Part shown: positions 1,794-7,730 of the stretch, piece after piece
How the letters are laid out: each line of letters opens with the position of its first letter
Position numbering within the stretch: the first letter of the stretch is position 1
Source of the DNA: an uncultured Nitrospiraceae bacterium
GTDB taxonomy: Bacteria > Nitrospirota > Thermodesulfovibrionia > Thermodesulfovibrionales > UBA6898
Length of the DNA: 64,000 nt
NCBI GenBank assembly: GCA_963811165.1
Contig: CAWEQH010000010.1
Coordinates: 224,001-288,000, forward strand
Direction of reading: 5' to 3'
Translations under genes and position numbers: made by a program
The notes under the pieces: generated by a model
Database searches by the model: none
Told to the model about the DNA's origin: nothing
Seen by the model: the letters and a program-made list of their open reading frames with translations, nothing else

Positions 1794-3377
1794 ATGAGCT
1801 ACCGGGAGGCAGATGAAAAAGAAACTCCTCAGGGAGAATGGCGCCCGAGCGTAAACCCGTGGCTCATCACCCTCGCCGTGATGCTCCCCACGTTTATGGA
1901 AGTGCTTGACACCACTATCGTCACGGTGGCTGTCCCGCACATCGCGGGCAGTCTTTCCTCTAGCAACGAAGAGGCTACATGGGTGCTGACAAGCTATTTG
2001 ATCTCTAATGCGGTAATACTTCCGGCAAGCGGATGGCTTGCCCTTTATTTCGGGCGGAAGCGGTTTCTCTTGACCTGTATCGTGCTATTCACCATCTCCT
2101 CGGTCTTCAGCGGGGTAGCCTCGAGCCTTGGGATGTTGATAGCAGCCCGAGTGCTCCAAGGGGTGGGCGGCGGCGCACTTCAGCCAATCTCGCAGGCCAT
2201 CCTGCTTGAGAGCTTCCCGCCTCAAAAACGTGGGATGGCAATGGCGGCGTTCGCCCTAGGGGTGGTCGTCGCACCGATTGTCGGACCTACCCTAGGCGGC
2301 TGGTTAACAGACAATTACTCATGGCGATGGACTTTTTATATAAATATCCCCATTGGGGCGATTGCGATGGTCATGATACAGACATTCATTGAAGACCCTC
2401 CTTATATAAAAGGCCGCAAGCCGAAATACATCGACTGGACCGGTTTCGCACTCATGGCGGTTGCGCTTGCCACCCTTCAAGTGGTCCTCGACAAGGGGCA
2501 GCAGGACAACTGGTTTGAGGCCTCCTGGATAAGATGGTTCACGGCCATAAGTGCGATTGCCCTCGTTGCATTTTTGATCTGGGAACTGCGGGTACGGGAG
2601 CCTATCGTTCACTTGAGGGTGTTCAAAAACCGGAATTTTGCAGTGGGAACATTCCTTATAACCCTGGTGGGATTATCTCTCTACAGCGCGATAACTTTGA
2701 TACCGCTTTTTCTCCAGACCCTTATGGGATACCCGGCATTTAACAGCGGTCTGGCTCTTAGCCCCCGCGGTGTTGGCGCGCTTATAACAACTCCCCTCGT
2801 CGGATATCTTACCGGCAAGGTCGATTTTCGAAAATTGATAGGGCTAGGGTTCTTCCTTGTGGCCATTTCTTTGTGGCTTTTAAGCGACATCAATCTGGAA
2901 ATATCGGTCTGGAACATCGGATTGCCGAATATCTTACAGGGCATTGGGCTTTCGATGTTGTTTATCCCCTTGGCGACAGTCTCAATGGGCACGCTTGAAC
3001 AAAAAGAGATAGGAAACGCAAGCGGGGTTTTCAACCTGATGAGAAACGTGGGCGGAAGCGCCGGTATCTCGCTGATGATAACCTATCTGGCGCGCCACCA
3101 ACAGTCAAACCAGATGGTTCTAGTCTCACGTCTGACTCCGTTGGATTTACCCTACCAGTTCAGGCTCGGAGCCGTTCAGGATTTTTTTATGGCGCGAACG
3201 GGCGTAGCAGATTCGTACAGGAGAGCGCAGCTTTTCATTTACAATTCATTGCAGAAGCAGTCACAACTCCTCGCTTTTATCCAGAGTTTCAGGTTTCTTG
3301 TCATCGTGTGCCTCATCTGCGTAGCCGCTGCTTTCCTATTTAAGAAAGTAGAACGCGCTCGGGTACCGGCCGACTAG
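1794..3377 (+). CDS. DHA2/EmrB-family MFS efflux permease
   Basis: MEVLDTTIV, WVLTSYLISNA, RVLQG.GGG, GPTLGGWLTDN.SWRW.FYINIP; many TM segments. Confidence 0.92.
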   Translation: MSYREADEKETPQGEWRPSVNPWLITLAVMLPTFMEVLDTTIVTVAVPHIAGSLSSSNEEATWVLTSYLISNAVILPASGWLALYFGRKRFLLTCIVLFTISSVFSGVASSLGMLIAARVLQGVGGGALQPISQAILLESFPPQKRGMAMAAFALGVVVAPIVGPTLGGWLTDNYSWRWTFYINIPIGAIAMVMIQTFIEDPPYIKGRKPKYIDWTGFALMAVALATLQVVLDKGQQDNWFEASWIRWFTAISAIALVAFLIWELRVREPIVHLRVFKNRNFAVGTFLITLVGLSLYSAITLIPLFLQTLMGYPAFNSGLALSPRGVGALITTPLVGYLTGKVDFRKLIGLGFFLVAISLWLLSDINLEISVWNIGLPNILQGIGLSMLFIPLATVSMGTLEQKEIGNASGVFNLMRNVGGSAGISLMITYLARHQQSNQMVLVSRLTPLDLPYQFRLGAVQDFFMARTGVADSYRRAQLFIYNSLQKQSQLLAFIQSFRFLVIVCLICVAAAFLFKKVERARVPAD

Positions 3378-3889
3378 AAATCCAATCCCTGAATCAACTT
3401 ATTGTGCGCTCCTTATTTTTCAGTGCTACACGTAACCTTGAACGGTAAGATTTCCGCTGACCAAACCTTATGCTGTTGCAAGAAAACGGCAGTGTTGGCT
3501 TCAGGAAGGCATTGAGGGGACCGAGAGTCGTTCAGATCGATTGAACTAACTGATAGGTTTCGCACTGTATTGCGCTGGGAAGAGGGATGCTTAAATGTCA
3601 GACAACTTTTTTCGTTCCTTCCTGTACATCGGAATAGTTTCAGATTGTAAAAACTATTTTATACCATGGTAATTAACGGATTTTGGGAGACAACGAGTTT
3701 CTCCCTTCCTCCCTCCTAAAGTTGGTATTCGTACAGCGTCAGCGGGAAACTGGAATACACCTGCTAATAACCAACAGATCCAAGAAGATGCAACTGAGGA
3801 AGACATCCTATATTGCCTCCTGTCAAGATAAAAAACATCTGGGGAATTTACTTTAAGTATCAATGATCATTTTCCGAGATCTTACAAGA

Positions 3890-4112
3890 ACAATAGTCCG
3901 CCGTACGTCCATCTGGACGATAGTCTTTTTTCCTGACGCGCTCTCTCACTTCGAGGGAACCTGATCTCTGATAGTTACGTTTATCCGACGTGTTCCGGAG
4001 TGAGCGAACCGCCCATCATCCCTTATCCAGATTCTCAAGTTCAGTGAGAGGCCCTGTATTGTCTTCACGAGGTCATTCGCCTCAACTTTGTCCCTCGGGC
4101 TCTCTGCGTCAA
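3890..4112 (-). ncRNA. Candidate IS110 bridge/seek RNA
   Basis: Non-coding region directly 3' of recombinase with nested complementary segments: 3943-3950/4043-4050 (8 bp), 3957-3964/4035-4042 (8 bp, one G-U), CGAGGGA/TCCCTCG, GACGC/GCGTC; boundaries approximate. Confidence 0.55.
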
Positions 4113-4184
4113 AATCGATTTTTGGAGGCTTCCAGAACAAAAAGGCTTCACAGGAAGCTCTCAGTTAAGTTATTTCGATCCGGC

Positions 4185-5437
4185 TTATACTGTGGTATCC
4201 TCCACATTGAGATATTTTGGATCAAACAGCTCTTTCTTCTTCATCAAGGTCCATGCGATAACCAGAAGCTTTGCGGCTATCTTTACACGCATCTTCGTGC
4301 CGATTCCCTTTTCTCTCTGCCTACCTCTAAGCTTGTTGGTGTAATAAGTCATGAAATCTTTGTTACTGAATGGAAGCGGTGAGAGCAGCCTGATATAAAG
4401 CATAGCGAAGATCAGCTTTGCCTTGCTTGGAAATAACCGGCGATTGCGCTGTTTGAAGTCTTTCCGCTACGGTTTGCGCAAAGATCGAACCCAGCCATCT
4501 TCAGTACCTGCTTGCCGCTTATAAACCGAAAGGGATCACCTATTGCCCCAAGGACCATTGAAGAGACATCCGGCCCAAAACCGGGGATACTCAACAGGTA
4601 TGGATATTCCGGAAACTGCATGCACAGATCTTCAATCTTACCCTTTACCTCCTTGATCGTCTCTCGCACCTGATGAAGCATCGATACCATCACCTTTGCC
4701 TCAAACAGCACCTCATCGCCTACATGACATCCAATGGACTCAGGGGCTGCCCGCCAGATCGACTGCAGCAGCTTTTGCTGTGCACTATTCGTCCTGCCAG
4801 GGGCAACGCTCCGGCGGAACTCATCGAACTCCATCCCGGCGATCATCGAGGGATCAAGACAGCGCCCCACTACGGCCAGGCTTACCACCGAGCCGAAGTG
4901 TCGATCCATTTCAGGGAAATACTGGGCCAGGAGCTGATTGCGGATGCGCACCTGGAGGCCGTGTTCCTCCTTCGTGAGCCGCCTCTTCAACGCAAGGAGA
5001 TTCCTCAGATCCTGCCTCTTCGGGTCCGGGTACTCATAGTAGAGGAATTTTCCCTGACAGATGAGGTCGGCTACGTTTGCGGAATCCTTGGTGTCGTGTT
5101 TGTCCCATCTGCCATCCAGAAGCGGCCGGTTGTGCTTTACTGCTGCCCCCGCTACCAAAACTACCAGATGCCCGCACTTAATGAGATGCTCTCCCAGAGG
5201 CTTATGGTAATTGGCTGTGGGCTCAAGACCGAAGACCACCTTTGTAAGGTCATGTTGAACCTTAAGCGCTTCTGTCATCGTCAGCAGTTTCTCGAATCCT
5301 TCAATCGTGTTGTCAAAGAACAATCCCTTGTGCAGCGTTTTGCCGGCTGCCGTGCCGAAAAAGGCATTGTGCCTCTCTTTGGCCACGTCGATGCCGACAA
5401 TCAAATACCCCTCGGATCCACGTATCTCGTTCTTGAG
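4185..5437 (-). pseudogene. IS110-family DEDD recombinase/transposase, main part (two apparent frameshifts near 4440 and 4370)
   Basis: VGIDVAK (D), GLEPT (E), KHDTKDS (D..D), SIPGFG, NRSGK, then ISKQGKADLRYALYQAA and AAKLLVIAWTLMK in shifted frames. Confidence 0.9.
5422..5437. repeat. 16-bp target site duplication, left copy
   Basis: GTATCTCGTTCTTGAG identical to 6763-6778. Confidence 0.95.
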
Positions 5438-6762
5438 TGTTGTCAACAAATAGAATTGTCCGGTTATAGAGCACATAAACTGTCCGGTCAGTAGCTATTT
5501 GATATCAGGCAACTTTTTTATTTAGTTTGGAGACCTCCTTCCCCTTGGAATTAAAGGATGCCAGTTTTCTGTGCCCATGGAATATGGCCAGGTTCCGTTT
5601 GGATAGCGATGGACACGGACCTTCACTTTGACGTAGTGAAAGCGGTACTTATCGGCTGGAATCTGAAGGGTCATACCATCGAATTTGACACAGTTGTCAT
5701 TACCGACCGTACGCTCATACTGTTCGCAGAGGATGTCTTGAAGAGGTGTTCCGGCCCAAGGCACGAACATGCTGGCTGACTCCTCTGGGGACACAGCAAA
5801 CTCATCGTTAAAGGCAGGCATATAAACATCACGGATATAGGCATTGGCCTGTTTCATCTCAGTGATGCCGGCAAGTGGCGAGTTCCTTTACAAGCCTCTC
5901 CTGATGGGTACGAAAGGCGCGTTCAGAGCGTCCCCGGGCCTCAGGAGAATAAGCCGGAATCATCTCAATCCCTAACTGCCTCATGGCACGACCAAATTGT
6001 GTCAGATTCTCCTTGTCCACTTTCCCCCCAGCCTCTGGGGTATTCCAGTAGTGGCTGCCGCGATCAGTATAAAGTGAGGCAAATACTCCATGCTTGTCGA
6101 TGACCTCATTGACTCCCTGAAAACTGCTCTGAGTCCCTTCTTCATCGACAAAGAACATCGAGTAATGTTCACTGGTAGCATCATCCATCGTCACGATCAG
6201 ATCCCATAACTTCCCTGGTACCCACTCATGCTTGGAGCCGTCCTGATGCAGCATCATGCCAATATACGGAGCTCGTGGACGCTGTTTCCGGTGAGCTCCT
6301 TTTCGGGAACCCTTGGGCACAAGCCCCTTGCCCTGAAGGGTATTCTTTACCCATGTGTAGCTCCTACTGCCCTCGTGAGCCCGCCGATACCAACTGTAAA
6401 AGTGTTTAACCGTAAATCCCTGATACCGGTGGTTGTATAAATCTGCCAGGGCTATTATCTCATCAACCGGCGCACTGCGGTGTGATATTTGTCCTAAACG
6501 CCTATCTACAAGCCCCTCCATCCCCTGCTCCTCATATCTCACCAGATATCGTCGATACGTGCGATCGCATACTCCAAGCAGCCTTGCCGCCTCCTCCTGC
6601 GTCAATCTCCCCTTTTTCCATCCTTCATATGCTTCCTCAAATCTCATCTTCCGTACCTCCTGTAGTAGTGCTGTCCTTTTCATGAATGGCTCCTCCTTGC
6701 CATCCAATTTTAACCGGACAGTTTATGTGCTACAGATACGGACAGTTTACTTGCTCGCTACA
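5438..6762 (-). mobile_element. IS1202-family (formerly ISNCY) insertion sequence, 1325 bp
   Basis: TGT...ACA ends; imperfect terminal IRs with internal repeats (AGCACATAAACTGTCCGGT at both ends); DDE transposase; 16-bp TSD. Confidence 0.9.
5505..6683 (-). pseudogene. IS1202/ISNCY DDE transposase, frameshifted near 5877 and 5590
   Basis: N-terminal HTH (EAARLLGVCDRT), HQDGS.H.W, TMDDATS, YTDRGSHY, AYSPEARGRSER; continues in ORF 5522-5857. Confidence 0.9.
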
Positions 6763-6778
6763 GTATCTCGTTCTTGAG
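6763..6778. repeat. 16-bp target site duplication, right copy
   Basis: GTATCTCGTTCTTGAG identical to 5422-5437. Confidence 0.95.
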
Positions 6779-6820
6779 TTGCCGAAACTCCTGAAGTCTG
6801 ATACCATCTAATTGTTCCAT
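6763..6820 (-). pseudogene. Native N-terminus of the IS110 recombinase (MEQLDGIRLQEFRQLKNEI), cut off by the IS1202 insertion
   Basis: ATG at 6820-6818 with GGAGG RBS at 6826-6830; joins in frame to RGSEGYLIVGID across the TSD. Confidence 0.88.
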
Positions 6821-6882
6821 AGAGACCTCCTGTTGATGAATTTTGTTTCTCCATAAACTAATTCTTAACAGGAGGTTTCTAT
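6819..6882 (-). promoter_or_regulatory. Hairpin covering the RBS and start of the IS110 gene
   Basis: ATAGAGACCTCCTGTT (6819-6834) versus AACAGGAGGTTTCTAT (6867-6882), 15/16 complementary. Confidence 0.75.
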
Positions 6883-7078
6883 TTTGGATAGTCTACAAAA
6901 TCAGTTCTCCCTATGATTTAATGGGGAGATCTAACTTCATGTTCTATTCATATATAACTTTGTCCCGACTTGACTTGTCTTAACGTTCATGATAAGCAAT
7001 TAAGTAAGAGACAATGGGATCTCAAAGGAAAAGGAGGCTGGCTCATAAAAAAAAGTTTTATTAAAAAAGGAGGATGAC

Positions 7079-7255
7079 ATGAACTTAGCACTAACAGACA
7101 AAGAAAAAGATATGCTTATGGGAGTACTTAAGGACTATATACCAGAACTTAGGGGTGAGATTGCTTCGGGTGCTAAACACGATTTTAAAGTGGAACTAAA
7201 GGAGGAAGAGGCAGTACTAAAAGGAATATTGGAGAAATTGCAGGCGCTGAAATAA
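7079..7255 (+). CDS. Small helical hypothetical protein, 58 aa (below ORF-track cutoff)
   Basis: AAGGAGG RBS at 7067-7073; MNLALTDKEKDMLMGVLKDYIPELRGEIASGAKHDFKVELKEEEAVLKGILEKLQALK. Confidence 0.75.
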   Translation: MNLALTDKEKDMLMGVLKDYIPELRGEIASGAKHDFKVELKEEEAVLKGILEKLQALK

Positions 7256-7730
7256 GTATATTTTCCTCGGACCTGCCCCAAGGTATTTCGACTGCTGCAC
7301 TTAGTGGCTGAAGTCCTCGCCTTCAGCTGTTCCTGATGGTGTTTTATCCTGGTAGTAATCTTGATAGAGTTTCGTCCGCCTGAGAGAATCAAGATGTCGG
7401 TGTTACCAATATCTCAGCTTGCTTTATTCATGGTCTTGTCACAGCGCGTACTCCGGGGCGAAACTAATTTTCTACGTAGTGATGACCATCCTGCGTCAAT
7501 TATCGGAAGAAACTGCCGCCGACCTCCGTTGTGTAAATTCTCAAGACAGTTTCTTTGGAGGTGAAAGAAACAAAAATACTATGTGTATTGCGGGTCGCAA
7601 CAATGCGAATCAGTCTTTCAGTGTACAACTTTATTTCTTGCGCCGATAGACTGAAAAGTGCTACGTTATTGTTAATATTGGGAATGCAGGTGTTCAACTT
7701 TATTCTAGATGGGCAACAAGGAGACATATC

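Follow-up and report, generated by a model that had tools for sequence, protein, structure and literature searches.

The window analysed here, a stretch of 64,000 nucleotides from contig CAWEQH010000010.1 of an uncultured Nitrospiraceae bacterium (assembly GCA_963811165.1), carries on its minus strand a recombinase gene of the IS110 family followed by a long non-coding region. The question raised by this locus is whether that region encodes a guide RNA for the recombinase and, if so, which of its bases would address the target and the donor DNA. An initial annotation, made from the letters of the window only, had noticed about 375 nt of non-coding DNA 3' of the recombinase stop codon (we counted 378 nt) and had taken it for an element-encoded guide RNA; this identification holds, with guides that match the flanks and ends of the element and a fold that covaries among relatives. 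Based on the comparisons below, minus-strand positions 3934-4111 very probably specify the bridge RNA of an IS110 element lying between two GT cores, which would steer the recombinase as in IS621. An Rfam search of positions 3300-7200 returned no matches at E values up to 1.

Two coding features make up the body of the locus:
4185..6820, minus strand: IS110-family recombinase gene, stop codon at 4185-4187, with PF01548 and PF02371 in its main piece
5438..6762, minus strand: nested IS1202-family-like (ISNCY) element with TGT...ACA ends, matching NF033594 at 260 bits (cut-off 250)

Over 325 aa, the main piece of the recombinase shares 91% identity with the 430-aa protein P0001, which scores 162.6 bits against the NCBIfam IS110 model NF033542 (cut-off 140) and whose DEDD RuvC domain and SG serine of the Tnp domain align with the corresponding IS621 residues. 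Intact relatives of the window recombinase are 430 aa long. Here the gene is broken by the nested element and by two +1 frameshifts, seen as extra bases near 4443 and 4371 in comparison with the related locus L009, which may be real mutations or assembly errors. The nested element is flanked by a 16-bp direct repeat (5422-5437 and 6763-6778; 17 letters fit on either side), and exactly 1341 bp of the window, corresponding to this insertion, are absent from the contigs of related elements. Four further copies of it, at approximately 90%, are present in the genome. The ISTde1 subgroup of IS1202 is described as having TGT ends and a direct repeat of 15-17 bp (10.1101/2022.12.17.520857); the nested element matches it in both and is assigned by these features. 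Its transposase lies in two frames here, with an extra base near 5875 relative to the related contigs. Without the nested insertion, the IS110 element measures 1813 bp. The assembly (95% complete) yielded neither a second copy of it nor a solo RNA or end motif, and because the recombinase is split and a second copy is absent from the assembly, the window copy is likely immobile. Outside the element, the approximately 120 bp at 3503-3627, between a transporter gene and the element, have two more genome copies (80-89%). On its other side the element lies upstream of a stretch resembling a promoter (6970-6998), at a distance of about 12 bp; this stretch is conserved before a small gene (approximately 7080-7256) in relatives L163, L165 and L166.

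A search with P0001 supplied 79 loci from genomes (out of the best 80 of 104) and 80 from metagenomes (the best 80 of 528). Identities to P0001 range from 50 to 92% among the matches listed, and those with names come mostly from Nitrospirota and delta-proteobacterial assemblies. A conserved RNA stretch was detected within 260 nt of the stop codon in 125 of the 135 loci that have at least 300 nt after it, with a profile that was itself built from 99 of those loci. Among the ten misses, six have the RNA 1.1 kb further downstream, in L070 it is in its usual position but follows a mis-called stop, and in L038 it lies past another insertion; L049 and L140 have neither RNA nor right-end motif within 2 kb downstream, though recombinase and left end are present, and may be truncated or represent a longer element. 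The alignment used throughout, A1, consists of the window and 101 loci (102 sequences), chosen from 126 candidates by leaving out three without an anchor, near-duplicates above 95% and one truncated row.

The limits of the element were placed as follows:
3803..3804, minus strand: GT core of the right junction; element sequence begins at 3805
6957..6958, minus strand: GT core of the left junction; homolog identity drops directly outside it
6821..6956, minus strand: left end of 136 nt, beginning with the right donor half TATAT
3805..3811, minus strand: left donor half, which is the right end of the element and includes an ATA trinucleotide
3799..3802, minus strand: right target flank, the stretch that the right target guide would read
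6959..6966, minus strand: left target flank, the stretch that the left target guide would read

In 26 homologs (at least 79%) aligned from the start codon, identity was 0.56-0.83 over 6918-6957 and 0.92-1.0 at 6950-6958, and fell to 0.54 or less at 6959-6966. On the right side, identity was at most 0.57 from 3802 outward in 28 homologs, which were chosen by their end motif, so that their identity at 3803-3811 is by construction. Joining the flanks of related elements through a single GT yielded an unoccupied match for 14 of 71 elements; six other junction models yielded 0, 0, 1, 0, 0 and 3 with the same elements. Most of these 14 share the target motif only, and the site of L083 in L056 is a true empty allele, with 29/30 and 28/30 flanking bases alike. 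The ends had initially been sought at an ATAGG shared by 3807-3811 and 6910-6914. Both copies are there, but element sequence runs 44 nt past 6914, leaving 6910-6914 inside the element in a variable stretch (identity 0.42-0.88), and homolog conservation together with the empty-site comparison moves the ends, and with them the site of recombination, to the GT cores.

An empty allele of the exact window site was not found among 54 genomes of the bacterial family. Homologs of the neighbouring small gene occur in 6 of 53 genomes of the family; their similarity ends some 12 nt away from the junction, and right-flank matches are short. Two target sites with two mismatches in the window are at chance level (9 of 100 shuffles), and the contigs of 8 of the 20 listed sequencing runs gave no listed empty-site or circle joint. 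The sole exact unoccupied match in the assembly to the 13-base target of the element lies near position 702260 of G000:C4 and extends to 16 bases; about 0.1 would be expected for a 13-mer, making it a possible free target and not a proof of one. Several relatives (among L084, L016, L004-L006, L003, L085, L086, L089 and L091) insert into palindromic REP-like repeats, and the target of L016/L084 occurs unoccupied 5, 5 and 9 times (at most one mismatch) in three genomes, with 0 for the reversed control.

Within the conserved RNA stretch the following segments match these junctions:
4085..4094, minus strand: left target guide with the GT core, of the same sequence as 6957-6966
4061..4066, minus strand: right target guide, complementing the core and the first four right-flank bases (3799-3804)
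4017..4021, minus strand: left donor guide GGAUG, identical to 3804-3808, which are the final four bases of the left donor plus the first of the core
3974..3977, minus strand: right donor guide UAAC, complementing the core and the first two right-donor bases
3973, minus strand: putative donor-loop handshake base U, complementing target position 7 (6959)
4059..4060, minus strand: putative target-loop handshake bases, the first of which (A, 4060) complements donor position 7

No convincing target guide had been seen by eye in the initial annotation; both halves of one are present. The left guide matches the left flank and core at 10 of 10 positions (1 of 2000 shuffles), and the right guide matches core and right flank at 6 of 6. 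Among the relatives, guides and flanks vary together. A left guide agrees with its own flank at a mean of 5.61 out of 7 positions versus 3.12 after permutation (n=82), a value obtained after seven rows of one branch had been shifted by one base on inspection (unshifted, 5.40 versus 3.17), and the right guide at 3.34 of 4 versus 2.37 (n=95); none of 5000 permutations was as high in either case. The same holds with one row per guide class, at 5.39 versus 2.51 for the left guide (n=23) and 3.42 versus 1.55 for the right (n=12), again with 0 of 5000 permutations each. Counting independent pairs on a FastTree tree of 98 proteins, position T5 changed the same way in 11.3 and the opposite way in 0 of 14 pairs (p 0.001), T4 reached p 0.002, T6 and T3 p 0.016, and T10 6/6 (p 0.03); T2, T7, T11 and T12 had too few independent pairs on this tree.

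One branch (L136, L139, L150, L151, L152, L157 and L024) has an extra base after the left target guide and a guide core of GA or GG. In L139, L150 and L157 the left junction reads GA but the right one GT, and L151 has GA at the right junction as well as in its left-target, right-target and right-donor guides. This branch offers a natural case of core reprogramming and of tolerance for a mismatch at the second core base.

On the donor side, ATA occupies donor positions 1-3 and TAT positions 12-14. The right donor guide complements the core and two bases in 79 of 82 rows, and the left donor guide follows the donor where it changes in 14 rows of three kinds, with three rows against. On the tree this leaves two independent pairs, which is not significant; the donor is nearly invariant and its changes come from few lineages. 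The donor-loop handshake base complements position 7 of the target guide in 99 of 102 rows (G with C in 81, U with A in 16 and A with U in 2) and the actual base of the flank in 78 of 82; here too the tree provides only four independent pairs (p 0.125). The A of the target loop complements donor position 7 in 94 of 96 rows, with both sides nearly invariant and the count therefore uninformative, and the second handshake base shows no pairing pattern across the rows of A1. Handshake covariation has been described for IS110 orthologues (PMC11208158).

The predicted fold that holds these segments consists of two arms and a closing helix:
3934..4111, minus strand: conserved bridge-RNA core of closing helix, target arm and donor arm, in single copy in the genome
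4106..4111, minus strand: 5' arm of the closing helix P1, pairing with 3934-3939
3934..3939, minus strand: 3' arm of the closing helix P1, pairing with 4106-4111
4047..4105, minus strand: target-binding arm, with a stem of 4097-4105 and 4047-4054 and an inner hairpin at 4069-4083 with a bulged invariant A
3947..4046, minus strand: donor-binding arm, with helices 4044-4046/3947-3949, 4035-4042/3957-3964 and 4029-4031/3967-3969
3987..4013, minus strand: inner stem of the donor arm with a variable tip, following the internal loop of that arm

The two helices of the target arm are paired in 99.5% and 99.4% of A1 cells, and both were found unaided by RNAalifold. The donor-arm helices and inner stem are paired in 97.7%, 85.9%, 97.7% and 96.4% of cells, and all six counted pairs of the inner stem show compensatory change. 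RNAalifold alone, applied to A1, predicted 27 pairs, 18 of them compensated, comprising the stem that closes the large internal loop with its inner hairpin, a CAC/GUG helix and the inner donor stem. Its prediction lacks two donor-arm helices and the closing helix, the latter probably owing to a register error of one column in that part of A1. The full model of 33 pairs is paired in 95.3% of cells, with 24 compensated pairs versus 14.7 in shuffles and 0 of 500 shuffles as high; it should be noted that the model was drawn from the same sequences and from RNAalifold, which biases the slid control in its favour, and that related rows are not independent.

The closing helix was assessed separately. 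The two ends of a sequence form on average 6.35 Watson-Crick base pairs with each other, versus 4.40 with swapped partners (maximum 4.84 in 1000 shuffles), through several different sequence pairs, and at least 5 bp are formed in 95 of 102 sequences. In the window this helix has pair probabilities of 0.54-1.0 and is present in the minimum-energy fold. In the predicted fold it would hang both arms from a three-way junction. Taken alone, the sequence of this copy gives the inner donor stem a pair probability of 0.05 and two outer target-stem pairs 0.02-0.03; the functional fold would therefore need protein. The energy of the single-sequence minimum-energy fold is unremarkable (z -1.77 and -1.85) and lends no support by itself. 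Outside the closing helix (4112-4184 and 3812-3933) hairpins vary, one of them terminator-like (4145-4158), and the distance from the stop codon to the target arm is approximately 18 to 91 nt in most relatives. Because the 5' hairpin varies and this distance ranges so widely, the hairpin looks dispensable.

The fold drawn initially from the window sequence agrees with this model in part. The long outer stem drawn there forms the base of the donor arm, and among the 102 sequences the columns of CUCUCACU/AGUGAGAG are paired in 92.7% of cells and those of GAACUUGA/UCAGGUUC in 85.9%; the CUCU half competes with the target-arm stem. The minimum-energy fold of this copy also contains this outer stem and the UGGGCG hairpin of that drawing, but not its ACGU hairpin. 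Neither hairpin is conserved, with UGGGCG/CGCUCA paired in 51.8% of cells and ACGU/ACGU in 61.4% (its last pair in 8 of 97), and the same is true of the suggested pseudoknot (51.8%); the inner hairpins and the pseudoknot were tried together and rejected, having 8 compensated pairs, fewer than the 9.9 of column shuffles. The notion of a fold more complex than that of IS621 survives in the closing helix and three-way junction, and fails as far as multiple branches are concerned, the donor loop being a simple internal loop of IS621 type.

How far do these data favour a bridge RNA over other explanations? Under the earlier reading, recombination would occur at ATAGG, with 4052-4061 serving as the donor guide of a multi-branched or pseudoknotted RNA of IS1111 type. 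The 9/10 match of this segment to the presumed circle junction is real (16 of 2000 shuffles reach it), the single-sequence fold has the outer stem and one inner hairpin of that reading, and many IS1111 RNAs lie 3' with multi-loop donor regions, as PMC11208160 describes. However, this segment starts with the final base of the right target guide and runs through both handshake bases and a linker into the target-loop stem, of which it takes three bases; that stem is paired in 99.5% of cells. The junction 10-mer is specific to this copy, needing a base at 3813 that was found in 0 of 28 homologs, while the RNA segment is unchanged in 43 of 102 rows. With the element continuing 44 nt beyond 6914, empty sites favouring GT, long subterminal repeats absent, and inner hairpins and pseudoknot paired in 52-61% of cells and compensated below shuffles, we regard this reading as refuted and highly improbable. 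Equally improbable is that the match between loops and flanks acts at the DNA level, as end-binding sites or a copied flank, with no RNA acting; G-U pairs and compensatory changes over 33 pairs are signatures of RNA, as is the match of left and right guides to opposite strands, and the pattern is that of IS621.

A somewhat better case, still an unlikely one, can be made for a target arm that guides alone in the manner of a seekRNA, the second loop being a protein-binding scaffold, the ends being read by protein and the likeness to donor guides being incidental. The donor matches are indeed short (5 and 4 bases) and nearly invariant, their covariation is not significant on the tree, and short target-only RNAs are described as supporting transposition steps in other IS110-family elements (PMC11187229, 10.1101/2025.10.25.684509). 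Such a reading sits poorly with a donor loop whose changes accompany those of the donor in 14 rows (three kinds), with a donor-loop handshake base that tracks the target in 99 of 102 rows, with L151, in which the core changes in junction and guides together, and with a closing helix that keeps both arms as one unit. A bridge RNA with both target and donor guides is thus the reading that we retain.

One further feature bears on how this bridge RNA could be expressed:
3821..3826, minus strand: TTGACA, the likely -35 of a promoter that only the circle would complete, since joining of the ends places it 18 nt from TATATA at 6951-6956

This hexamer had been noticed initially as lying 9 nt inside the first ATAGG, and it likely belongs to a junction promoter. 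TTGACA is found in 93 of 95 rows, its spacing to the left end is 16-18 nt in all 95, the left end begins with TATATA in 73 of 76 rows, and the spacing stays at 17 nt in each of the 12 rows that have one more donor base. As a presumed -10, TATATA departs from the consensus in having no final T. A promoter scan of the linear DNA at 3700-4500 gave no sites. By analogy with known systems, TTGACA and TATATA are predicted to form, likely, a promoter across the circle junction. A conserved inverted repeat was also observed in the left end (6825-6834 and 6867-6876 in the window, and in homologs); in transcripts starting upstream it would pair the recombinase ribosome-binding site (6826-6831).

The mechanism that we propose is modelled on IS621 (PMC11208160, PMC11208158, PMC13626964). 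The element would leave as a circle joined at GT, in which TTGACA would stand 18 nt before TATATA and so create a promoter. A transcript from it would pass through the recombinase gene into the RNA, which would be trimmed. A recombinase tetramer would bind the RNA, one loop of which would take up the target and the second the donor, and the top strands would be cut at the GT core and exchanged. The handshake, donor-loop U with target position 7 and target-loop A with donor position 7, would favour insertion, and the recombinase protein likely recognises the conserved ATA and TAT that adjoin the guided donor bases. Transcription, promoter activity, RNA binding and catalysis are all attributed to this element on the strength of IS621. 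Recent work, as described, favours copy-out via single-stranded circles (10.1101/2025.10.25.684509; 10.64898/2026.08.31.748434), and the sequence of this element cannot decide between this and another route.

A sister lineage is of interest in this respect. Seven related elements (L034-L039 and L043), which form one side of a branch with support 78, have a primase-like Toprim_2/DUF3991 gene of 311 aa between recombinase and RNA; the window copy lacks it. Of 11 distinct matches to this gene, 10 have the RNA directly behind and 9 have a recombinase or a remnant in front, one having no recombinase within 5.6 kb and one lying on a short contig. Eight full copies, at different sites and with different guides, are open, with a median dN/dS of 0.22 (0.09 for the recombinase; pairs are not independent). 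Copies were observed at L034, L035, L036, L037, L038/L190, L039 (3395-4366), L043, L178/L189, L180 and L187, one of them decayed and one internally deleted, and the gene has 88 database relatives at E 1e-20. Searching 401 genomes of the phylum and 209 of the class added no new contexts, and our literature search found no primase inside IS110. Cargo in IS110 elements is known from 10.64898/2026.08.14.744561, the main text of which contains 'primase' and 'toprim' 0 times; the sister lineage likewise has an extra gene inside the element, but differs from the elements described there in having one gene, at a fixed position between recombinase and RNA, under purifying selection. As a hypothesis only, the Toprim gene could copy single-stranded circles; a plasmid-derived passenger is as likely. 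A broader proposal would combine a distinct scaffold class of bridge RNAs, in which the closing helix locks the arms together, marks the RNA for excision from the read-through transcript and prevents a target-only split, with recruitment of the Toprim/DUF3991 gene in one branch to make circles double-stranded. We consider this combination unlikely. If true, the Toprim branch would represent an IS110 element with its own replication helper, and it bears on how single-stranded IS110 circles become double-stranded donors.

With a known mechanism and a broken copy, the locus itself is ordinary. What makes it valuable is the family, which supplies some 100 natural elements with mapped ends from Nitrospirota and delta-proteobacterial lineages. 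Their left guides fall into at least 23 natural classes and their right guides into at least 12, the core is GT or, in one branch, GA, and the handshake follows a readable rule; together they form a parts list for a bridge recombinase distant from IS621, with intact relatives L009 and L082 at 92% identity. Through the closing helix one could furthermore test directly whether tethering of the arms is required and how processing of a 3' RNA takes place.

As for its class, the element belongs to the IS110 group and is not IS1111-like, judging by protein length, C-terminal motif and the lack of long subterminal repeats. IS1111 elements have subterminal inverted repeats of 7-17 bp and transposases of 330-350 aa with a GL-P----S(T)G motif (motif as given in PMC11187229), whereas in the IS110 group such repeats are absent or 2-3 bp long, transposases measure 315-455 aa (PMC11187229) and the RNA usually lies 5' of the gene. 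The IS1111-like placement given initially does not agree with a 430-aa protein, with the absence of 7-17 bp repeats (perfect repeats shared by the two end 35-mers reach at most 5 bp here, and at most 4-6 bp, mostly of TATA type, in 68 of 76 relatives), or with the motif before SG, which reads GFDLCANRSG and contains no GL-P. Of the IS110-group features, the ATA/TAT pair beside the donor, described for IS110 in the Durrant preprint, and the protein length are present; the RNA is 3' of the gene instead of in the usual 5' position, and the non-coding right end of 380 nt, against 136 nt on the left, is typical of an IS1111 3' region. Exceptions of IS110 type with a long 3' non-coding end have been published (PMC11187229). 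They have the same transposase class (395-455 aa), short or absent subterminal repeats and a long 3' end, and the element is likened to them by description only, so that it may or may not be of that branch.

With the IS1111 elements and their seekRNAs (ISEc11; PMC11187229) the element shares a long non-coding region with a guide RNA downstream and an expected read-through from a junction promoter; it differs from them in its repeats, protein length and motif, and in donor guides that lie in a simple internal loop. In ISPpu9 the downstream Ssr9 is described as a different, dispensable RNA (PMC12288879). Published consensus folds of bridge RNAs are described as diverse, and a text search of the literature found no IS110 bridge RNA with a three-way junction, a fold that figures or supplements may contain. 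The only solved relatives are IS621 and ISCro4, with which the recombinase shares DEDD and SG (E 7.5e-17 and 5.2e-14). With IS621 the RNA has in common two internal loops, target then donor, the 2-nt core, a 9-nt left target guide over both core bases, a left donor guide that reaches the first core base only, about four reliable right-guide bases, the handshake at position 7, ATA/TAT beside the guided donor and a likely -35 at the junction. It differs in that the RNA lies 3' of a 430-aa recombinase and in that a covarying closing helix joins the arms in a three-way junction. The features of bridge systems that could be looked for were found at this locus or in its relatives, with a junction promoter as a likely one, and the element appears to be a new family member using a known mechanism.
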